A stretch of 64,000 nt of DNA from Escherichia coli (lineage in GTDB: Bacteria > Pseudomonadota > Gammaproteobacteria > Enterobacterales > Enterobacteriaceae), in NCBI RefSeq assembly GCF_013122565.1, contig NZ_CP053258.1. The stretch is one strand, 5' to 3'. Made by a program: the position numbers and the translations under genes. Shown here piece by piece: positions 1 to 55,323 of the stretch. Numbering within the stretch: the first letter of the stretch is position 1; each line of letters starts with the position of its first letter. Under the pieces are notes generated by a model. The model searched no databases, was not told where the DNA came from, and saw only the letters and a program-made list of their open reading frames with translations.

Positions 1-494
1 CGCCGCTGACCGATGGCGCAGCGGCGGTGATCCTGATGACTGAATCCCGGGCGAAAGAATTAGGGCTGGTACCGCTGGGATATCTGCGCAGCTACGCATT
101 TACCGCTATTGATGTCTGGCAGGACATGTTGCTCGGTCCGGCCTGGTCAACACCGCTGGCGCTGGAACGTGCCGGTTTGATGATGAGCGATCTGACATTG
201 ATCGATATGCACGAAGCCTTTGCAGCTCAGACACTGGCGAATATTCAGTTGCTGGGTAGTGAACGTTTTGCTCGTGAAATACTGGGGCGTGCACATGCCA
301 CTGGCGAAGTGGACGATAGCAAATTTAACGTGCTTGGCGGTTCGATTGCTTACGGGCATCCCTTCGCGGCGACCGGCGCGCGGATGATTACCCAGACATT
401 GCATGAACTTCGCCGTCGCGGCGGTGGATTTGGTTTAGTTACCGCCTGTGCTGCCGGTGGGCTTGGCGCGGCAATGGTTCTGGAGGCGGAATAA
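1..494 (+). CDS. fadI: 3-ketoacyl-CoA thiolase FadI, 3' portion (gene begins upstream of the window)
   Basis: Open frame from position 1; C-terminal thiolase sequence ([32 protein letters not shown]); stop overlaps fadJ start at 494. Confidence 0.9.
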
Positions 495-2638
495 TGGAAA
501 TGGCATCAGCGTTTACTCTTAATGTTCGTCTGGACAACATTGCCGTTATCACCATTGATGTTCCTGGTGAGAAAATGAATACCCTGAAGGCGGAATTTGC
601 CTCGCAGGTGCGCGCCATTATTAAGCAACTCCGTGAAAACAAAGAGTTGCGCGGCGTGGTGTTTGTCTCCGCTAAACCGGACAACTTTATCGCCGGAGCA
701 GACATCAACATGATCGGCAACTGCAAAACGGCGCAAGAAGCGGAAGCTCTGGCGCGGCAGGGCCAACAGTTGATGGCGGAGATTCATGCTTTGCCCATTC
801 CGGTTATTGCCGCTATTCATGGCGCTTGCCTGGGCGGTGGGCTGGAGCTGGCGCTGGCGTGCCACGGTCGCGTTTGTACTGACGATCCTAAAACGGTGCT
901 CGGTTTGCCTGAAGTACAACTTGGATTGTTACCCGGTTCAGGCGGCACCCAGCGTTTACCGCGTCTGATAGGCGTCAGTACAGCATTAGAGATGATTCTC
1001 ACCGGAAAACAATTTCGGGCGAAACAGGCATTAAAGCTGGGGCTGGTGGATGACGTCGTTCCGCACTCCATTTTGCTGGAAGCCGCTGTTGAGCTGGTAA
1101 AGCAGGATCGTCCATCTTCCCGCCCTCTACCTGTACGCGAGCGTATTCTGGCGGGGCCGTTAGGTCGTGCGTTGCTGTTCAAAATGGTCGGCAAGAAAAC
1201 AGAACACAAAACTCAAGGTAACTATCCGGCGACAGAACGCATCCTGGAGGTTGTCGAAACGGGATTAGCGCAGGGCACCAGCAGTGGCTATGACGCTGAA
1301 GCACGAGCGTTTGGCGAACTGGCGATGACGCCGCAATCGCAGGCTCTGCGTAGTATCTTTTTTGCCAGTACGGACGTGAAGAAAGATCCCGGCAGTGATG
1401 CGCCGCCTGCGCCATTAAACAGCGTGGGGATTTTAGGTGGTGGCTTGATGGGCGGCGGTATTGCTTATGTCACTGCCTGTAAAGCGGGGCTTCCGGTCAG
1501 AATTAAAGATATCAACCCGCAGGGCATAAATCATGCGCTGAAGTACAGTTGGGATCAGCTGGAGGGCAAAGTTCGCCGTCGTCATCTCAAAGCCAGCGAA
1601 CGTGACAAACAGCTGGCATTAATCTCCGGAACGACGGACTATCGCGGCTTTGCCCATCGAGATCTGATTATTGAAGCGGTGTTTGAAAATCTCGCATTAA
1701 AACAACAAATGGTGGCGGAAGTTGAGCAAAATTGCGCCGCTCATACCATCTTTGCTTCGAATACGTCATCTCTACCGATTGGTGATATCGCCGCTCACGC
1801 CGCGCGACCTGAGCAAGTTATTGGCCTGCATTTCTTCAGTCCGGTGGAAAAAATGCCGCTGGTGGAGATTATTCCTCATGCGGGTACATCGGCGAAAACA
1901 ATTGCCACTACGGTAAAACTGGCGAAAAAACAGGGCAAAACGCCAATTGTCGTGCGTGACAAAGCCGGGTTTTACGTCAATCGCATCTTAGCGCCTTACA
2001 TTAATGAAGCTATCCGCATGCTGACCGAAGGTGAACGGGTAGAGCATATTGATGCCGCTCTAGTGAAATTTGGTTTTCCGGTAGGTCCAATCCAACTTTT
2101 GGATGAGGTAGGAATCGACACCGGGACTAAAATTATTCCTGTACTGGAAGCCGCTTATGGAGAACGTTTTAGCGCGCCTGCAAATGTTGTTTCTTCAATT
2201 TTGAACGACGATCGCAAAGGCAGAAAAAATGGTCGGGGTTTCTATCTTTATGGTCAGAAAGGGCGTAAAAGCAAAAAACAGGTCGATCCCGCCATTTACC
2301 CGCTCATTGGCGCACAAGGGCAGGGGCGACTCTCCGCACCGCAGGTTGTTGAACGGTGTGTGATGTTGATGCTGAATGAAGCAGTACGTTGTGTTGACGA
2401 GCAGGTTATCCGTAGCGTGCGTGACGGGGATATTGGTGCGGTATTTGGCATTGGTTTTCCGCCATTTCTCGGTGGACCGTTCCGCTATATCGATTCTCTC
2501 GGCGCGGGCGAAGTGGTTGCAATAATGCAACGACTGGCCACGCAGTATGGTTCCCGTTTTACCCCTTGTGAGCGTTTAGTCGAGATGGGCGCACGTGGGG
2601 AAAGTTTTTGGAAAACAACTGCAACTGACCTGCAATAA
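494..2638 (+). CDS. fadJ: Fatty-acid oxidation complex alpha subunit (enoyl-CoA hydratase / 3-hydroxyacyl-CoA dehydrogenase)
   Basis: 714-aa ORF with crotonase fold and NAD-binding [13 protein letters not shown] motif; 1-nt overlap with fadI stop. Confidence 0.95.
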
Positions 2639-2840
2639 GAAGGTCAAAGCTATATGAATCCGCGCTGAATGGCGGAGTGATGGTCAAAATGTAAACGCAT
2701 ATTGACTATACTTACGCCATTGAGGTAAAAAACAGCGTTTCATTCGGTGAATGGATAAGGCACAATGCCGGCCACCGTTTTCTTTCTCTGGTTTCAGATG
2801 AAAGAAAACGGGCGAATCTGGTTAACAAAAGCGGTGCAAT

Positions 2841-3326
2841 ATGCAAGTTTTTATCATGCGTCACGGCGACGCAGCCCTCGATGCCGCCAGTGATTCGGTT
2901 CGTCCTCTGACTACTAACGGTTGTGACGAATCTCGCCTGATGGCGAACTGGCTGAAAGGTCAAAAAGTGGAAATCGAACGCGTTCTGGTGAGCCCGTTCC
3001 TGCGAGCCGAGCAAACACTGGAAGAAGTAGGGGATTGTCTGAACCTGCCTTCCAGTGCAGAAGTTCTGCCGGAGTTAACGCCCTGCGGCGATGTTGGTCT
3101 GGTCAGTGCCTATTTACAGGCGTTGACCAATGAAGGTGTTGCTTCGGTACTGGTGATCTCCCACTTACCGTTAGTCGGGTATCTGGTTGCCGAGTTATGT
3201 CCGGGCGAAACGCCGCCTATGTTTACCACCTCAGCCATTGCCAGCGTAACGCTTGATGAAAGCGGAAACGGCACATTCAACTGGCAGATGAGCCCGTGTA
3301 ATCTGAAGATGGCAAAAGCTATCTGA
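2841..3326 (+). CDS. sixA: Phosphohistidine phosphatase SixA
   Basis: 161-aa ORF starting MQVFIMRHGDA (RHG histidine phosphatase motif). Confidence 0.9.
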   Translation: MQVFIMRHGDAALDAASDSVRPLTTNGCDESRLMANWLKGQKVEIERVLVSPFLRAEQTLEEVGDCLNLPSSAEVLPELTPCGDVGLVSAYLQALTNEGVASVLVISHLPLVGYLVAELCPGETPPMFTTSAIASVTLDESGNGTFNWQMSPCNLKMAKAI

Positions 3327-3977
3327 AGCTATAGAAATATGCCCGGTGAGATCACGTCATCGGGCATCTCCTTTCGTTCCTCTTGGCTGTATTCACACAT
3401 TTTCCCATTGATTAGGCGATTATTTTTGTGGAGCTATATTTCATATTTATATGAATGGCAGGTTTTTCCGGGAATGACATATCGTGTGGCGGAGGGTTAT
3501 TTAAGGAATGCAATGACATTTATTAGAGGAGCCTGTAACAATAGGCACACGTAAATAAAATTAAAAAGGAGTTGTGTCTTGATTTATATTATATATTGTT
3601 TTTCATTAATTATCCGCAGAAAAAAACAGAAATCGCATTTTTTTGTTGTTGCTTTCTTATTACCCACTTTGTAATGTGGCCCATATGAATTTAACCGTTA
3701 TGCAATAATTACGTTCTGTATTCATAGGGAATTCCTCAAAAAACATTATCCATAGTGATATTTTAAGTTTTACTTAAAATCATTGTTAGTAAAACTAATT
3801 TGAATTCACCGTTCAAAACTCCCACTATCGCCGCACACCAAAGAATATCATCTTATGCAATCTTTTGCGGGAAGCAATGACGCATATTCGATGGTCATCT
3901 CTAAGCCGCTCACTTCAATATTAATCTGAGGTTTTCCGGCGCTTATAATTTAATTATTTATGGTTTAAGGACAAATA

Positions 3978-4544
3978 ATGAGTAAGTTTGTTAAAACTGC
4001 TATTGCAGCGGTGATGGTAATGGGTGCGTTCGCGTCAACTTCTTCCATCGCTGCCGGTAACAACGGTACCGCGCGTTTCTACGGCACCATCGAAGATTCC
4101 CCGTGCTCCATCGTGCCTGACGACCACAAACTGGAAGTTGATATGGGCGATATCGGTTCTGAAACACTGAAAGGCAGTAAATCAACCACCCCGAAAGAGT
4201 TCCAGATCCGCCTGCAGGACTGCGTGTTTGATACTCAGGCCAAGGCTTCGACTGTCTTCACCGGCACCATCTATACTGCGGTCGCCAACAGCAACAACTA
4301 CACCATTTTCAGCACCGAAACCGGTATGCCATTTGAGCATGTCAGCCTGGCGATTGGTGATGAACATGGCGCGGCATACAAAAGCGGTATGCCTATCGAA
4401 CAGGCGCTTACTATAGATTCCAGCACCACGAAAGGTAAACCTAACCAGACGCTGAACTTTAAAGCATGGCTGGTGGGTGAAAGTGAAATGCCGACCCTGG
4501 GGGCATTTGAAGCTAACACCACGTTCCAGATCACTTATCTCTGA
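3978..4544 (+). CDS. yfcV: Fimbrial major subunit of the Yfc chaperone-usher system
   Basis: 188-aa ORF with signal peptide and fimbrial-subunit features; first gene of a 7-gene chaperone-usher cluster; preceded by a 650-bp AT-rich region. Confidence 0.85.
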   Translation: MSKFVKTAIAAVMVMGAFASTSSIAAGNNGTARFYGTIEDSPCSIVPDDHKLEVDMGDIGSETLKGSKSTTPKEFQIRLQDCVFDTQAKASTVFTGTIYTAVANSNNYTIFSTETGMPFEHVSLAIGDEHGAAYKSGMPIEQALTIDSSTTKGKPNQTLNFKAWLVGESEMPTLGAFEANTTFQITYL

Positions 4545-4551
4545 TGTTTCA

Positions 4552-4581
4552 CCCCATGGCGGCAACGTCATGGGGTTTTTT
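4552..4581 (+). terminator. Intra-operon hairpin plus T-tract between yfcV and the usher gene
   Basis: CCCCATG-gcggcaacgt-CATGGGG followed by TTTTTT, just after the yfcV stop. Confidence 0.7.
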
Positions 4582-4613
4582 AATTGATTCTGACGAAATT
4601 ATAATAATCACGG

Positions 4614-7277
4614 ATGGATACGTGTATGCCAGACCATTCTCTTTTCCGTTTACGGGTGCTTCCCTGGTATATTGCGCTGGCAATATCCGGAAGCTATGCC
4701 AGTGCCTGGGCTGATGATGATATTCAGTTTGATTCCCGTTTTCTGGAATTAAAAGGCGACGCAAAAGTCGATCTGAAACGTTTTTCCAGTCAGGGCTATG
4801 TCGAGCCGGGTAAATATAATTTACAGGTTCAGGTAAATAAGCAGCCGCTCCCGGATGAGTACGATATTTTCTGGTATGCCTCTGAAAAAGATGCCGGTAA
4901 AAGTTATGCCTGCCTGACGCCCACGCTGCTCGCCCAGTTTGGTCTGAAAGAGGAGATTGTAAAAAATCTGCAATGGTCCCGCAACGGCGAATGCCTCGCG
5001 CCAGGTCAGCTGGAAGGGACAGAGATTAAGGCTGATTTAAGCCAGTCCGCGTTATTAATCTCCCTGCCACAGGCCTATCTGGAATACAGCGATATGGACT
5101 GGGACCCGCCTTCCCGCTGGGACGATGGTATTCCCGGCCTGATTGCTGACTACAGCATTAACGCCCAGACCCGCCACGATGAGCAGAGCGGCGATGACAG
5201 TAACGACATCAGCGGTAACGGCACGGTAGGGGTAAACCTCGGCCCGTGGCGTCTGCGCGCCGACTGGCAGACGGACTACCAGCATACCCGCAGCGACGAT
5301 GACGATGAATACAGCGACAGTGACGGCAACAGCACACAAAGAAACTGGGAGTGGAGCCGCTACTACGCCTGGCGCGCCCTGCCGTCATTAAAAGCCAAAC
5401 TTGCGCTCGGCGAAGATTACCTCAACTCCGATATTTTCGACGGCTTTAACTATGTCGGCGGCAGCGTCAGCACTGAAGACCAGATGTTACCGCCAAATAT
5501 GCGCGGCTACGCCCCCGATATTTCCGGGGTGGCGCACACCACGGCGAAAGTGACCGTCAGCCAGATGGGCCGCGTCATTTACGAAACCCAGGTTCCGGCG
5601 GGGCCGTTCCGCATTCAGGATTTGGGCGATTCCATCTCCGGTACGCTGCATGTGCGTATTGAAGAGCAGAACGGTCAGGTGCAGGAATATGATATCAGCA
5701 CCGCGTCGATGCCGTTCCTGACCCGTCAGGGCCAGGTGCGCTATAAAGTGATGATGGGCCGCCCGCAGGAGTGGGGGCACGATATTGCCGGCGGATTTTT
5801 CTCCGGCGGTGAAGCCTCCTGGGGGATTGCCAACGGCTGGTCGCTCTACGGCGGCGCGCTGGCGGATGAAAACTATCAGTCGGCGGCCATTGGCGTCGGG
5901 CGTGACCTGTCAATTCTTGGTGCGATGGCCTTTGACGTCACGCACTCACATGTCCGCCTGGATGACAACACTGCCTACGACAATCGTACCCTGGACGGTA
6001 ACTCGTTCCGCGTGAGCTATGCCAAAGACTTTGACGAACTCGACAGCCGCGTTACCTTCGCCGGATACCGCTTCTCTGAAAAAAACTTCATGACCATGAG
6101 CGAATATCTGGATGCGAAAGATGCGGACATGGTGCGCTCCGGCAACGATAAAGAGATGTACACGGTTACCTACAACCAGAACTTCCGGGATGCCGCGGTT
6201 TCTGTCTATCTCAACTACACCCACCGCACCTACTGGGACCGGCCGGAACAGACCAACTACAACGTGATGATGTCCCACTATTTCAATATGGGCAGCATCC
6301 GCAACATGAGCGTGTCCCTGACCGGTTACCGCTACGAATACGACAAAAGCACCGACAAAGGGATGTATATCTCGCTGAGTATGCCGTGGGGCGACAGCAG
6401 TACCGTCAGCTATAACGGCAACTACGGCAGCGGCTCAGACTCCAGCCAGGTCGGTTATTTCAGCCGTATCGACGATGCCTCGCATTACCAGATTAACGTC
6501 GGCACCAGCGAAAACCACGGCAGCGTGGATGGCTACTACAGCCATGACGGCTCGCTGGCGCAGGTGGATTTAAGTGCCAACTACCATGAAGGCGAGTATC
6601 AGTCTGCCGGGATTTCACTGCAGGGCGGCGCGACGCTGACCGCGCACGGCGGGGCGCTGCACCGCACGCAATCGCCCGGCGGGACACGTCTGCTGATTGA
6701 CGCTGACGGCGTGTCCGGCGTGCCGGTGGAAGGTAACGGTTCGCCGGTTTACACCAACATGTTTGGTAAAGCGGTCGTGGCGGATGTCAACAACTACTAC
6801 CGTAACCAGGCCTATATCGACCTGACTAAACTGCCGGAAAACGCCGAAGCCACCCAGTCGGTGGTGCAGGCCACGCTGACCGAGGGCGCGATTGGCTACC
6901 GCCAGTTTGCAGTGATCAGCGGGCAGAAAGCGATGGCGGTACTGCGCCTGAGCGACGGCAGCCATCCGCCGTTTGGTGCGGAAGTGAAAAACAGCGACGA
7001 GCAGCAGGTGGGGCTGGTTGACGATGACGGCAACGTCTATCTGGCCGGGGTGAAACCGGGCGAGCGGATGACGGTGTCGTGGAACGGTGAGACACACTGT
7101 GACATCGCGCTGCCGGACCCGTTACCGGCCGATCTGTTCAACGGCCTGTTGCTGCCCTGCCAGAACCGGGGTGCCGTCGCGCCTGCCACCTCGCCGGACG
7201 TCAAACCGGTGATTCAGGAGCAGACGCAGCAGGTGACACCAACGGAACCCCCGACTTCAATTTCAGTAAACCAGTAA
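4614..7277 (+). CDS. yfcU: Outer-membrane fimbrial usher, intact (true start may be the Met at 4626)
   Basis: 887-aa uninterrupted ORF with usher-like N-terminal signal and C-terminal domain. Confidence 0.85.
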   Translation: MDTCMPDHSLFRLRVLPWYIALAISGSYASAWADDDIQFDSRFLELKGDAKVDLKRFSSQGYVEPGKYNLQVQVNKQPLPDEYDIFWYASEKDAGKSYACLTPTLLAQFGLKEEIVKNLQWSRNGECLAPGQLEGTEIKADLSQSALLISLPQAYLEYSDMDWDPPSRWDDGIPGLIADYSINAQTRHDEQSGDDSNDISGNGTVGVNLGPWRLRADWQTDYQHTRSDDDDEYSDSDGNSTQRNWEWSRYYAWRALPSLKAKLALGEDYLNSDIFDGFNYVGGSVSTEDQMLPPNMRGYAPDISGVAHTTAKVTVSQMGRVIYETQVPAGPFRIQDLGDSISGTLHVRIEEQNGQVQEYDISTASMPFLTRQGQVRYKVMMGRPQEWGHDIAGGFFSGGEASWGIANGWSLYGGALADENYQSAAIGVGRDLSILGAMAFDVTHSHVRLDDNTAYDNRTLDGNSFRVSYAKDFDELDSRVTFAGYRFSEKNFMTMSEYLDAKDADMVRSGNDKEMYTVTYNQNFRDAAVSVYLNYTHRTYWDRPEQTNYNVMMSHYFNMGSIRNMSVSLTGYRYEYDKSTDKGMYISLSMPWGDSSTVSYNGNYGSGSDSSQVGYFSRIDDASHYQINVGTSENHGSVDGYYSHDGSLAQVDLSANYHEGEYQSAGISLQGGATLTAHGGALHRTQSPGGTRLLIDADGVSGVPVEGNGSPVYTNMFGKAVVADVNNYYRNQAYIDLTKLPENAEATQSVVQATLTEGAIGYRQFAVISGQKAMAVLRLSDGSHPPFGAEVKNSDEQQVGLVDDDGNVYLAGVKPGERMTVSWNGETHCDIALPDPLPADLFNGLLLPCQNRGAVAPATSPDVKPVIQEQTQQVTPTEPPTSISVNQ

Positions 7278-7296
7278 CGTGATTAAGGAATGATCC

Positions 7297-8040
7297 ATGT
7301 TTAATCTGACTAACACTGCAAAAACCGTTATCCCTGCGCTGGCGCTGCTGGCCAGTTTCTCCAGCCACGCCTCGGTGACACCCGACAGGACGCGGCTGGT
7401 GTTTAACGAAAGCGACAAATCCATCAGCGTCACGCTGCGCAATAATGACCCCAAACTGCCCTATCTGGCGCAGAGCTGGATAGAGGATGCAAAGGGCAAC
7501 AAAATCAGCTCGCCGCTGGCGGTGCTGCCGCCGGTACAGCGCATCGATGCGATGATGAACGGCCAGGTGAAGGTGCAGGGGCTGCCGGATATCAACAAAC
7601 TGCCAGCCGACCGCGAGAGCGTGTTCTACTTTAACGTGCGCGAGATCCCGCCGAAATCAAACAAACCGAACACGCTGCAGATTGCGCTGCAGACGCGCAT
7701 CAAGCTGTTCTGGCGACCGAAGGCGCTGGAAAACGTCAGCATGAAAAACCCGTGGCAGCACAAGGTGACGCTCACCCGCAACGGCCAGGATTTTACCGTC
7801 AATAACCCGACGCCGTACTACGTGATCATCAGCAACGCCAGCGCGAAAAAAGGCGGCAACCCGCCGGCGGGATTCACACCGCTGATGCTGGAGCCGAAAA
7901 CCTCCGCCCCGCTGAATGCGAAGATGGACAGCGTGCCGGTGCTGACCTATATCAACGACTACGGCGCGCGGATGCCGCTGTACTTCAAATGCACCGCCAA
8001 CAACTGCCAGGTGGATGAAGAGCAGAGCCGCAAAGGCTGA
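7297..8040 (+). CDS. yfcS: Periplasmic fimbrial chaperone (PapD-like)
   Basis: 247-aa ORF with signal peptide and pilus-chaperone N-terminal motif (RLVFNESDKSISVTLRNN). Confidence 0.85.
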   Translation: MFNLTNTAKTVIPALALLASFSSHASVTPDRTRLVFNESDKSISVTLRNNDPKLPYLAQSWIEDAKGNKISSPLAVLPPVQRIDAMMNGQVKVQGLPDINKLPADRESVFYFNVREIPPKSNKPNTLQIALQTRIKLFWRPKALENVSMKNPWQHKVTLTRNGQDFTVNNPTPYYVIISNASAKKGGNPPAGFTPLMLEPKTSAPLNAKMDSVPVLTYINDYGARMPLYFKCTANNCQVDEEQSRKG

Positions 8041-8055
8041 TGCCGGGAGGGACTT

Positions 8056-8553
8056 ATGAGTCACAAGTTTTTAGCGGGGGCGGGGTTGCTGGTATTCAGT
8101 CTCTGTAGTTTCCCGGTTATGGCTGGCAGTAAAACCGTAGAGTTAACTCTGCGCGTGTTAGTGGATGCGCCACCACCGTGCTCCGTGAAGGGCAGTGCGG
8201 TGGAATTTGGCAATGTGACGATCAACAAGATCGATGGCACGAATTACCGACAGGATGCGAAATACACCCTGAGCTGCGGCAATAAAGCCAGCGACGATTT
8301 ACAGATGCAGCTCAAAGGGAATACCGCCGTTATCAACGGAGAAACGGTCCTCAGTACGGATATTGCCGGCCTGGGTGTGCGGATAGAAAACGCTGCCGAT
8401 AATTCCCTGTTTGCGGTAGGTGAAAATACCTGGACGCCTTTTAACTATAACACTCAGCCACAGCTGAAAGCGGTGCTGGTAAAACAGAGCGGAGTGCAGT
8501 TAACGCCGTCGGAATTTAACGCCACTCTGACCATGGTGGTGGATTACCAATGA
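8056..8553 (+). CDS. yfcR: Fimbrial-like minor subunit
   Basis: 165-aa secreted protein ending in a typical fimbrial C-terminal strand (VVDYQ); overlaps next gene. Confidence 0.75.
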   Translation: MSHKFLAGAGLLVFSLCSFPVMAGSKTVELTLRVLVDAPPPCSVKGSAVEFGNVTINKIDGTNYRQDAKYTLSCGNKASDDLQMQLKGNTAVINGETVLSTDIAGLGVRIENAADNSLFAVGENTWTPFNYNTQPQLKAVLVKQSGVQLTPSEFNATLTMVVDYQ

Positions 8554-9038
8554 AAAGACTCACGCTGATTTTACTGTGCACCTGCTGGGGCACAGCCCAG
8601 GCCGCCGACGAGGACATCACATTTCATGGCACCCTGGCATCGCCGCCCGCCTGTAGCATCAGCGGCGGGAAAACCATTGAAGTGGAGTTTCGCGATCTCA
8701 TTATCGACAGCATTAACGGGAATTATGGCCGGCAGGAAGTTGTATATGAGCTTAGCTGCGAATCCGATGCCCGCGATCCTGGCTGGCAAATGTCCCTGAC
8801 GTGGACCGGCACGCCCACCAGCTACAACGATGCCGCCATCGAGACGGATGTGCCGGGCTTCGGGATTGAGCTTCAGCATGACGGACAGCGTTTTCTGCTC
8901 AACACGCCGCTAAACATTGACGCCACGGATTTCAGCAAGAAGCCGAAGCTGGAGGCCGTACCGGTAAAAGCGGCTGATGCGGTGCTGAGTGACACGACTT
9001 TTTCTGCTTACGCAACTTTACGGGTGGATTACCAATGA
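8550..9038 (+). CDS. yfcQ: Fimbrial-like minor subunit
   Basis: 162-aa ORF with signal peptide; C-terminal RVDYQ; 4-nt overlaps with both neighbours. Confidence 0.75.
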   Translation: MKRLTLILLCTCWGTAQAADEDITFHGTLASPPACSISGGKTIEVEFRDLIIDSINGNYGRQEVVYELSCESDARDPGWQMSLTWTGTPTSYNDAAIETDVPGFGIELQHDGQRFLLNTPLNIDATDFSKKPKLEAVPVKAADAVLSDTTFSAYATLRVDYQ

Positions 9039-9574
9039 AAATAGCACGCACTTATACGCCGGCTTACGCGCTGTTCGCGGGCCTGCTGCTGACCGCCAGC
9101 ACAGACACTTTCGCCATGGACAACAACCTGCATTTTTACGGCAACCTGCTGAGTAAATCCTGCACGCTGGTGGTGGACGGTACCAACCTGGCAGAAATTC
9201 ATTTCCCCACCGTCAGCAACCGGGATTTGATGGTCGCCGGGCAGTCCGCGCATCTGCCGGTTGTGTTTAAGCTGAAAGACTGCAAAGGGCCTGCGGGATA
9301 CAACGTCAAAGTCACGCTGAGCGGCACTGAAGACAGCGGTCAGCCGGGATTTCTGGCAATCGATGACACCTCCACCGCGCAGGGGGTGGGGATAGGGATG
9401 GAAACGCTTGACGGCAAGCGGGTGGATATTAACAACACCACCGGTGCGACCTTCGCGCTTATCAACGGTAACAATGACATTAATTTCAGGGCCTGGATCC
9501 AGGCGAAAAGCAGTCGGGATGTGACGATCGGTGAATTTACCGCCTCTTTAACTGCGACATTTGAGTACATTTAA
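9035..9574 (+). CDS. yfcP: Fimbrial-like subunit
   Basis: 179-aa ORF with signal peptide and fimbrial C-terminus (TATFEYI). Confidence 0.75.
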   Translation: MKIARTYTPAYALFAGLLLTASTDTFAMDNNLHFYGNLLSKSCTLVVDGTNLAEIHFPTVSNRDLMVAGQSAHLPVVFKLKDCKGPAGYNVKVTLSGTEDSGQPGFLAIDDTSTAQGVGIGMETLDGKRVDINNTTGATFALINGNNDINFRAWIQAKSSRDVTIGEFTASLTATFEYI

Positions 9575-10394
9575 AATGAAAATACTACGATGGTTGTTCG
9601 CTCTGGTCATGCTTATGTCTGCGACAGAAGCTCTGGCTGCCGGGCATAGCATCAAGCTTTACTACGGAATTAGCCATGATCTGCAGGCTATCACGGCTTT
9701 TAGCCTGAAAATCATGATGCCATCAGGGGTCTACGATGGAGAATATAAGAGTAGTAACTTTGCACACATAGGGGATTATCTGCAAAATATAAGCTGGAAT
9801 GGTCCGCCTCCTGCACCTTCAGTAAAGATGATAGACTACAAGCAAAAGCTCGATGAATCATTATGCCCGGGGCTACCTTCTGGGTGGCTCTGTGGGTCTC
9901 TTGAATTTGAAATTATTGTTTCTGCTGATATTGAATCTTTCTTTTCTTGCCCTTGGTTGGTTGTTATGAGTGATACCGTGACCTCTAGAGGTGTGGCTTA
10001 TAAGGGGCCGGACGGTTATGCCACACTTTGTCAAACTGTTTCTGTTCAACCTTATGATGTTTCATGGAATGAGAATTATGTCAGTAAGTCTAAACTGCTC
10101 ACTCTGCAATCGACGGGCGGTGTGGTTGAGAAAACGCTTTCAACGTATTTAATGAAAGATGGCAAATTGTGCGACAGTTCGCAGATGAATGAAGCCGGTG
10201 GTTACTGCCGCTGGGTTGCGCAGATGATAACTTTTACTGCAACGGGATGTGATAAGGCGGAAGTCACTGTCACGCCAAATCGACATCCTATAACGGACAA
10301 ACAATTACACGATATGGTCGTGCATGTTGATACCAGTAGTATGCAGCCAATCGATTCTACTTGCCGGTTCCAGTACATACTGAATGAGTTGTAG
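9561..10394 (+). CDS. yfcO: Putative fimbrial tip adhesin-like protein
   Basis: 277-aa cysteine-rich secreted ORF, last gene of the yfc cluster. Confidence 0.7.
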   Translation: MSTFKMKILRWLFALVMLMSATEALAAGHSIKLYYGISHDLQAITAFSLKIMMPSGVYDGEYKSSNFAHIGDYLQNISWNGPPPAPSVKMIDYKQKLDESLCPGLPSGWLCGSLEFEIIVSADIESFFSCPWLVVMSDTVTSRGVAYKGPDGYATLCQTVSVQPYDVSWNENYVSKSKLLTLQSTGGVVEKTLSTYLMKDGKLCDSSQMNEAGGYCRWVAQMITFTATGCDKAEVTVTPNRHPITDKQLHDMVVHVDTSSMQPIDSTCRFQYILNEL

Positions 10395-10464
10395 CCGTTA
10401 GAAACACTCAGGCAGGGGCATTCGCCCCTGCCATTACCCGCTCATGGCGCAACACTCTCCCCCC

Positions 10465-11016
10465 TCAGGGCAACTCCGGTGGCAGCCACTCTTCCACTTC
10501 AATCAACACCAACAACGCCGCATCACCGCCATACTCTTTTGGTGCCTGGTGAAACGCCATCACATGCGGATGTTGTGCCAGCCACAGCGGTGTTTGTTGC
10601 TTCAAAATATGCTTCCCGTGACCATGCATCACGCAGGCGCAAAACACATGTTCGCGGCGACAGGCGGCAATCAACGCGCCCAGTTCCTGCTTGGCCTGCA
10701 GCTGCGTCAGACCGTGTAAATCCAAAAACAATTCCGGCGAATAATCGCCACGGCGCAACTTCTTCGCCTCAAAATGACTCACATCCGGGCGAACATATTT
10801 CACCGGACCTTCGGTATTTAATAACGGCTGAAACTCATCGGAGAAATAATGGCTGGCATCAGCCTGCTCCTGAATCAAGCGTTTCACCGGTACTTCGCTG
10901 ATTTTCTTACGCTGTGGTCGGTGGACAATCGTGTCCTGCTTAATCTTGCGAGTCCCCGCCATCAACTGGCGAAACAGCGCCTGGTCCTCCTCGCTTAGTG
11001 TTGTTTTCTTTTTCAT
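10465..11016 (-). CDS. smrB: Ribosome rescue endonuclease SmrB (Smr domain)
   Basis: 183-aa [21 protein letters not shown]... with C-terminal Smr domain; divergent from prmB. Confidence 0.9.
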
Positions 11017-11181
11017 TTATGTATCTCTATTTCTAATTTTCCTACAGTTTACCCGACTCGTAGCACAATCGATCGTTTTAAACGTATTTTTCCTCACTCA
11101 CCGCGCGTGAATGCTGATTTATCGTCATCTTCATGGCAAACTAGCCGCCGAAATTATTGCGATCATGCCCTGGAGGAATAC

Positions 11182-12114
11182 GTGGATAAAATTTTCGTTG
11201 ATGAAGCAGTAAATGAGCTGCAAACCATTCAGGACATGTTGCGCTGGTCGGTGAGCCGCTTCAGCGCGGCAAATATCTGGTACGGTCACGGCACCGATAA
11301 CCCGTGGGATGAAGCCGTACAGCTGGTGTTGCCTTCGCTCTACCTGCCGCTGGATATCCCGGAAGATATGCGCACCGCGCGTCTGACCTCCAGCGAAAAA
11401 CACCGTATTGTTGAACGCGTGATCCGCCGCGTCAACGAACGCATTCCGGTGGCTTACCTGACCAACAAAGCGTGGTTCTGCGGCCATGAATTTTACGTCG
11501 ATGAACGTGTGCTGGTGCCGCGCTCGCCGATTGGTGAACTGATCAACAATAAATTTGCCGGACTTATCAGCAAGCAACCGCAGCATATTTTAGATATGTG
11601 TACTGGTAGCGGTTGCATCGCCATTGCCTGTGCTTATGCCTTCCCGGATGCGGAAGTCGACGCGGTGGATATCTCTCCCGACGCGCTGGCGGTTGCTGAA
11701 CAGAACATCGAAGAACACGGTCTGATCCACAACGTCATTCCGATTCGTTCCGATCTGTTCCGCGACTTGCCGAAAGTGCAGTACGACCTGATTGTCACTA
11801 ACCCGCCGTATGTCGATGCGGAAGATATGTCCGACCTGCCAAACGAATACCGCCACGAGCCGGAACTGGGCCTGGCATCTGGCACTGACGGCCTGAAACT
11901 GACGCGTCGCATTCTCGGTAACGCGGCAGATTACCTTGCTGATGATGGCGTGTTGATTTGTGAAGTCGGCAACAGCATGGTACATCTTATGGAACAATAT
12001 CCGGATGTTCCGTTCACCTGGCTGGAGTTTGATAACGGCGGCGATGGTGTGTTTATGCTCACCAAAGAGCAGCTTATTGCCGCACGAGAACATTTCGCGA
12101 TTTATAAAGATTAA
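11182..12114 (+). CDS. prmB: Ribosomal protein L3 glutamine N5-methyltransferase
   Basis: Match begins [10 protein letters not shown] (GTG start at 11182 preceded by GGAGG); NPPY methyltransferase motif present; the ORF track's upstream ATG at 11107 is probably not the real start. Confidence 0.9.
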
Positions 12115-27933: not shown

Positions 27934-27942
27934 TAACTGATA

Positions 27943-27971
27943 AGGGCAGGGCCACTGGCTCTGCCCTTTTG
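27943..27971 (+). terminator. Hairpin plus T-tract after accD
   Basis: AGGGCAG...CTGCCCT followed by TTTT. Confidence 0.55.
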
Positions 27972-55241: not shown

Positions 55242-55285
55242 TCGACGAACCATAGATAATTCCTGGAACAATAGTGTAAAAACGA

Positions 55286-55323
55286 GCCGCTGGGGGTGTT
55301 TTATACCCCAGCGGCTTTTTTTT
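55286..55323 (+). terminator. Hairpin plus T-tract after lrhA
   Basis: GCCGCTGGGG-tgttttata-CCCCAGCGGC followed by TTTTTTTT. Confidence 0.75.

Follow-up and report, generated by a model that had tools for sequence, protein, structure and literature searches.

Does the hairpin which separates the major-subunit gene yfcV from the usher gene of the Yfc pilus operon work as a partial terminator, and could it account for an excess of rod subunit over the assembly machinery? This question is raised by a stretch of 64,000 nucleotides of Escherichia coli DNA (contig NZ_CP053258.1), which was analysed at its full length and is called the window here. It carries an allele of yfcV, a gene which serves as a marker for uropathogenic E. 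coli, together with the other genes of a chaperone-usher operon. An earlier, sequence-only reading of this DNA had described a strong stem followed by T6 directly after yfcV and before the usher gene. It had compared the layout with that of pap/fim-type operons, where partial termination is used to over-produce the major pilin. A literature search found no paper addressing a yfcV terminator. The coordinates of all features of the locus are collected in Table 1.

Table 1. Features of the yfc locus in the window (positions are those of the window)
Feature	Position	Strand	Details
yfcV allele, major (rod) subunit of the Yfc chaperone-usher pilus	3978..4544	+	Pfam Fimbrial, E = 8e-15
Stop-to-stem gap, TGTTTC	4545..4550	+	sequence reading
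Hairpin of terminator type	4551..4576	+	11-pair stem, 4551-4561 with 4566-4576; GCAA tetraloop 4562-4565
U-tract, T6	4576..4581	+	followed by AATT; T6 counts the paired T4576
Usher-gene leader, A/T-rich	4582..4625	+	TATAAT 4600-4605; GGA motifs 4612-4614 and 4616-4618
Usher gene, yfcU homologue	4626..7277	+	Pfam PapC_N, Usher (E = 4e-184), PapC_C
PapD-type chaperone gene	7297-8040	+	operon continuation
Three minor-subunit genes, Fimbrial-domain	8056-9574	+	operon continuation
YfcO-type adhesin gene, DUF2544/YfcO	9561-10394	+	operon end

The hairpin is composed of the arms ACCCCATGGCG and CGTCATGGGGT with the loop GCAA between them, as seen by direct reading and confirmed by an inverted-repeat finder. 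Seven of the 11 pairs are G-C and one is a G·U pair (4559·4568). The sequence-only reading had given the stem as CCCCATG/CATGGGG, which is correct for the core and falls short of the full length. The U-tract abuts the GC-rich base of the stem directly (tail TTTTTAATTG in the terminator scan). The yfcV reading frame ends with ATC ACT TAT CTC and the stop codon TGA (4542-4544). The stem begins 6 nt past this stop, and the end of the hairpin is 50 nt from the usher start at 4626. A segment of 34 nt folds with -20.8 kcal/mol against -7.0 +/- 2.2 for its dinucleotide shuffles (z = -6.2), and none of 200 shuffles was as stable. Direct reading, scan and fold thus all bear out the strong stem with T6 between the two genes.

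The terminator scan ranked the yfcV hairpin as the best-scoring terminator-like site of positions 1-12000. In stability it was third among the 302 T-tailed hairpins found on both strands of the whole 64-kb window. The two more stable ones are located at 55284-55317 (+), with -25.5 kcal/mol and T7 following, and at 27942-27968 (+), with -21.6 kcal/mol. On the reverse strand the yfcV hairpin has a weaker fold (-15.3 kcal/mol) with an internal mismatch and no T-run after it. The hairpin is expected to work in one direction only, since an upstream A-tract is absent. A stable GC-rich stem-loop, an adjacent U-rich tract and a strand-specific place 3' of a gene, three marks of an intrinsic terminator, are all present at this site. 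The hairpin sequence occurs once in the 64-kb window, where none is expected by chance. A REP-like repeat element was considered and rejected, the sequence being unique in the window and single-copy in E. coli genomes.

The identity of the flanking genes is supported by Pfam and RefSeq. The yfcV product has 188 aa and is 73% identical to YfcV of K-12, and the gene order fadJ, sixA, yfcV, usher is the same in RefSeq genomes. The hairpin has the major-subunit gene on its 5' side and another gene of the same operon, the usher gene, on its 3' side. The ATG at 4614 had been taken as the usher start in the sequence-only reading, with a spacer of 69 nt. The start is most likely the ATG at 4626, because the RefSeq homologues use its equivalent and the K-12 and E. 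whittamii alleles possess no upstream in-frame ATG corresponding to 4614. The yfcV-usher spacer is therefore 81 nt long instead of 69. It is the sole junction of more than 19 nt in the operon; all others are of 19 nt or less, or overlap. The sequence between the T-run and the usher ATG is AATTGATTCTGACGAAATTATAATAATCACGGATGGATACGTGT, and its block ACGGATGGATACGTGTATG is highly conserved among yfc alleles. The GGA at 4616-4618, situated 7 nt before the ATG, is likely a weak Shine-Dalgarno element, and a weak ribosome-binding site at this place would lower usher output further. A stem-loop CACG-GATGGATA-CGTG is also found at 4609-4625, just 5' of the usher start; it bears both GGA motifs and resembles a CsrA site. 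A CsrA-type site at 4609-4624 was rejected, as the stem is not retained in the K-12 or SCU-105 alleles.

To compare the hairpin between alleles, the spacers of E. coli K-12, O157, MB53, SCU-105, P15-25 and E69 were aligned with that of the window. Spacers of E. whittamii, two unnamed Escherichia lineages, two E. albertii alleles, two Pseudocitrobacter species and one unassigned contig were also compared. The divergent spacers were gathered through protein homologues and their contigs; a contig search with the usher protein gave only 5 loci. All 12 distinct yfc alleles have the hairpin in this position, and the core stem of the other alleles folds with -14.5 to -20 kcal/mol. The core stem was isolated by the scan in 13 yfc-type loci, and in these it starts 6-9 nt past the stop codon. 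Standard pairing was observed in 93% of the cells of the 12-allele alignment, against 37-46% when the 3' partners were slid by 1-3 columns. Six of the 11 pairs are changed on both sides among the 12 distinct alleles, and none of 500 shuffles reached the observed values of pairing, double change or covariation. Strain E69, for example, has a T-A pair in place of the C-G found in others. The loop varies freely (GCAA, ACAC, UUCG, GAAA, TTA and ATCGC). G·U pairs occur in several alleles and would turn into A·C mismatches if the opposite strand were the one to fold, so what is constrained is the RNA of the + strand. Conservation is higher in the hairpin than in the yfcV coding sequence, the YfcV proteins being 59-73% identical between alleles, and synonymous sites vary at the 3' end of yfcV.

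From these comparisons, structural selection on the hairpin across Escherichia and Pseudocitrobacter is clear, and the element is real, conserved, strand-specific and of terminator type. The covariation and the gene identities both favour the earlier description of a terminator-like hairpin between the major-subunit gene and the usher gene. The arms also form an inverted repeat in the DNA, so a protein-binding site at the DNA level or a chance palindrome, in either case with no function in RNA, was considered. The probability of this is next to negligible. A chance palindrome is opposed by the fold statistics (z = -6.2, 0/200 shuffles folding equally well) and by unrelated sequences of the same shape which occupy the same place in stf operons. 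A DNA site is opposed by covariation which keeps the pairing, including G·U pairs valid only in the + strand RNA, and by the fact that the sequence is not a repeated element.

The same layout is widespread in chaperone-usher operons. In K-12 MG1655, a stable hairpin follows the major-subunit gene in nine of ten such operons, namely after yfcV, fimA, sfmA, yadN, elfA, ybgD, yraH, ygiL and ecpA. The 34-nt spacer after yehD is the sole one of the ten in which no hairpin was found. Clean T-runs follow the hairpins of yadN and yraH; those of ygiL and fimA in K-12 have none. The comparison with pap/fim-type operons made in the sequence-only reading is upheld by these hairpins, by one in the pap operon of CFT073 and by a Term-seq end in the fimA-fimI spacer.

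In pap, partial termination between papA and papH considerably lowers the downstream transcripts, as stated in a review (PMC6524683) which cites Baga et al. 1985. The papA-papH spacer of CFT073 contains AAACAGCGGAA-ATA-TTCCGCTGTTT followed by ATTTCT, directly after the rod-subunit gene and before the assembly genes, and the order usher then chaperone is common to pap and yfc. The two hairpins, however, show no sequence similarity. The next gene is papH, encoding the rod terminator/anchor subunit, in pap and the usher gene in yfc. In pap, papA comes after a regulator gene, papB, and RNase E processes the transcript between them. The distance from stop to hairpin is about 20 nt in pap against 6 nt in yfc.

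In stf operons of Salmonella, Citrobacter and Enterobacter, the major-subunit gene is followed by the usher gene as in yfc, and a hairpin lies within about 12 nt of the stop. Loci with the hairpin were found in S. enterica subsp. salamae, Citrobacter and Enterobacter, and their StfA-type proteins are about 40% identical to YfcV. The stems of the stfA-stfC spacers are GC-rich (-18 to -27 kcal/mol). They differ from the yfc stem in being unrelated in sequence, for example ACCCTGCGGCA-TGA-TGCCGCAGGGT, and in having T/A-mixed tails (TTATCATAATT) with no clean U-run. The Enterobacter stf locus (positions 2061-2193 of that locus sequence) possesses two successive hairpins in the stfA-usher spacer, the second being ATCCGGAACCA...TGGTTCCGGAT followed by TTTTAC. 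This double hairpin suggests tandem attenuators in some relatives.

The fim operon also has a stable stem-loop directly after the major-subunit gene, in the fimA-fimI spacer, where it marks a strong RNA 3' end. The K-12 Term-seq tables give a primary 3' end at 4543708 in this spacer, and it coincides with the 3' end of the ncRNA fimR2 (b4838), annotated by RefSeq at 4543674-4543708 of K-12 MG1655. FimR2 is a functional sRNA which is made by RNase E cleavage and binds CsrA (PMC9723502). The fim hairpin differs from that of yfc in having no U-tract where yfc has a canonical U6. FimR2 works in trans, by binding CsrA and by base pairing, and the yfc hairpin possesses no GGA loop motif. The gene order is also different, with fimI, chaperone and usher following in fim. 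Judging by the fimA-fimI case, a hairpin after a pilin gene can itself be a functional RNA.

By analogy, the 3' UTR of yfcV might yield a FimR2-like small regulatory RNA, of which the hairpin would be the stabilising and protein-binding module. Among the speculative alternatives this is the main one. An annotated, functional, RNase E-generated and CsrA-binding RNA at the equivalent fim position speaks for this reading, as do the better conservation of the hairpin than of the yfcV coding sequence and a U6 tail which would suit Hfq binding. Against it, just 6 nt of 3' UTR precede the stem and the synonymous sites at the yfcV 3' end vary. The loop varies freely, and neither a conserved single-stranded seed nor a GGA loop motif as in FimR2 was found among the alleles. 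No Rfam family was matched either: a scan of 3300-5000 at a permissive E-value gave as its best match a sub-threshold NsiR1 (22.3 bits against a gathering score of 39, E = 0.14). This match over the hairpin was rejected as generic terminator shape. We therefore regard a small RNA of this kind as very improbable. A slightly broader version, in which the last coding part of yfcV with the hairpin and U6 would release a stable RNA that binds Hfq or ProQ and cross-regulates adhesins or motility, is a long shot on the same analogy. If it were true, chaperone-usher operons would in general give rise to regulatory RNAs, through the hairpins after their pilin genes.

The U-tract is far less conserved than the stem among the yfc alleles compared. 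The sequence after the stem is T6 in the window, MB53 and E69, and T5 in O157, E1V33 and L023. It is TTTTAT in one E. albertii allele and CTCAAT in the other, TATTT in K-12, ATTT in E. whittamii, ATTTT in P. vendiensis, TTTATAA in SCU-105, TTATAA in P15-25 and TGTATAA in P. corydidari. Most alleles keep 2-3 U's just after the stem, and the window has the most canonical U-tract of those compared. A d'Aubenton-Carafa-type score was +34 for the window allele and -9 for K-12; it serves as a ranking aid only. The automatic hairpin picker used for this score over-extended several stems (pap, ecp, yadN and stf). The strength of termination probably differs among alleles, the one in the window being the most terminator-like and that of K-12 weak.

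As the U-tract is poorly and the stem strongly conserved, the selected role may include protection of the 3' end of the yfcV message. The hairpin may be the main target of selection, with stability or processing as the benefit, and termination may be weak or absent in some alleles. Taken to its full extent, this would make the hairpin mainly a stabiliser of the mRNA 3' end or a processing boundary, where endonucleases cut the spacer, exonucleases halt at the hairpin and the distal part decays. It is consistent with a stem which covaries and is kept beside a U-tract which is often poor or absent, and the A/U-rich spacer 3' of the hairpin would suit RNase E. The fimA-fimI hairpin marks a strong 3' end even with no U-tract, its RNA arising from RNase E cleavage, and pap too has RNase E processing for differential stability, as described in the same review (PMC6524683). 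Nevertheless, a canonical U6 right beside a GC-rich stem base is the signature of intrinsic termination, and most alleles retain their 2-3 U's. The two functions are moreover not exclusive, as a terminated RNA would also be capped by the hairpin. A role mainly in stabilisation or processing is judged unlikely, but has to be taken seriously as a partner of termination or an alternative to it.

The reading we prefer, with a probability of about 0.72, is that the yfc hairpin acts within the pilus operon as a leaky (attenuating) Rho-independent terminator and at the same time caps the yfcV message at its 3' end. With canonical E. coli Rho-independent terminators it shares a GC-rich 11-pair stem, a GNRA-type tetraloop and six adjacent U's, and its stability is comparable to that of the best end-of-operon terminators of the window. 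It differs from them in being placed inside an operon, 6 nt past a stop codon, where ribosomes repress termination. In the proposed mechanism, transcription would begin at a point upstream of yfcV. Once RNA polymerase passes the end of this gene, the emerging transcript would fold into the 11-pair hairpin directly before UUUUUU, and a share of the polymerases would terminate at about 4577-4583. This would give a short yfcV mRNA, monocistronic and shielded at its 3' end by that hairpin against 3' exonucleases. Polymerases that read through would go on to transcribe the genes for usher, chaperone, minor subunits and adhesin, and the rod subunit would far outnumber the assembly machinery.

The leak itself would depend on translation. 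With a gap of only 6 nt between stop and stem, the ribosome that ends translation of yfcV would sit over the foot of the 5' arm and prevent folding when translation tracks the polymerase closely. A polymerase with a close ribosome would thus read through and an uncoupled one would terminate. A precedent exists in the tR2 terminator, where shifting the stop codon's position from 28 to 5 bp upstream lowered termination from ~90% to <10% (Li et al., PMC4824070). A few bp after a translated gene, tR2 was almost fully repressed by the terminating ribosome (PMC4824070). By this precedent, read-through at the yfc hairpin is probably helped by the very short distance from the stop, and termination could be minor if occlusion by ribosomes is as strong as in the tR2 experiments. 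We infer that polymerases terminate here, that only a share of them do so and that the leak is set by how near the ribosome is. Two expression studies (microarray and RNA-seq) list yfcV, but none of the downstream yfc genes, among the induced fimbrial genes. These reports fit a leaky terminator as circumstantial evidence and prove nothing. The K-12 Term-seq tables (Adams et al. 2021) contain no entry for yfcV or yfcU, presumably owing to the silence of the operon in that strain, and are thus uninformative on this point.

The promoter scan reported no sigma-70-like site in the yfcV-usher spacer, and the usher and later genes should therefore need read-through. A perfect TATAAT 20 nt upstream of the usher ATG and 19 nt 3' of the T-run nevertheless leaves room for an internal promoter and counts against pure read-through. 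It is kept in the window, MB53, O157, E1V33, both E. albertii alleles, L023 and both Pseudocitrobacter species. The hairpin with U6 also looks strong, and it is conceivable that an efficient terminator closes a monocistronic yfcV unit and that the genes from the usher onward are expressed from their own weak promoter with this hexamer as its -10 element. However, no acceptable -35 element exists at 16-18 nt (TTTTTA or TTTTAA, with 3/6 matches) and no TG extension is present, and the hexamer itself was not among the sites reported by the scan. In K-12, E. whittamii and E69 the hexamer is degenerate (AAGAAT, TTTAAA). A transcript starting from it would have a leader of only ~13 nt, and the A/T richness could equally represent a translation-enhancing leader. 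A separate downstream unit is thus quite improbable.

If the yfc hairpin is a leaky terminator, it would explain how many rod subunits per usher are obtained from a single promoter. It would then be an ordinary example of a well-known kind, an intra-operon attenuator after a major pilin gene, and unsurprising to a specialist. Mildly new are the variation of the U-tract between alleles against an invariant stem and the conserved distance of 6-9 nt from the stop, by which pilin translation could set the rate of read-through. The element would be useful mainly for annotation, and for engineering or measuring the expression of cryptic pilus operons.

The operon as a whole also showed some features of its own. 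The locus is carried by roughly 4,100 E. coli genomes. The stretch 3978-10394 is a rare divergent allele of it, with no more than 75-84% identity to most E. coli. Its closest match is E. coli MB53, with 95% identity in the yfcV region and 92.7% in the rest of the operon. The adjoining fadJ and sixA are 98.7% identical to E. coli, and a divergent operon beside such neighbours points to an old polymorphism or an allelic replacement at a core-genome pilus locus. The usher gene has been inactivated repeatedly: E. coli 2018-05-2CC has an IS3-family insertion 84 nt into the usher gene along with a frameshifted yfcV, and yfcU of K-12 has an internal stop. Upstream of the operon, the sixA-yfcV interval (3327-3977) comprises 650 nt of non-coding DNA, with a GC content of 32% in 3501-4000 against ~50-60% in the flanks, and presumably represents a silenced (H-NS-type) promoter region of the operon.
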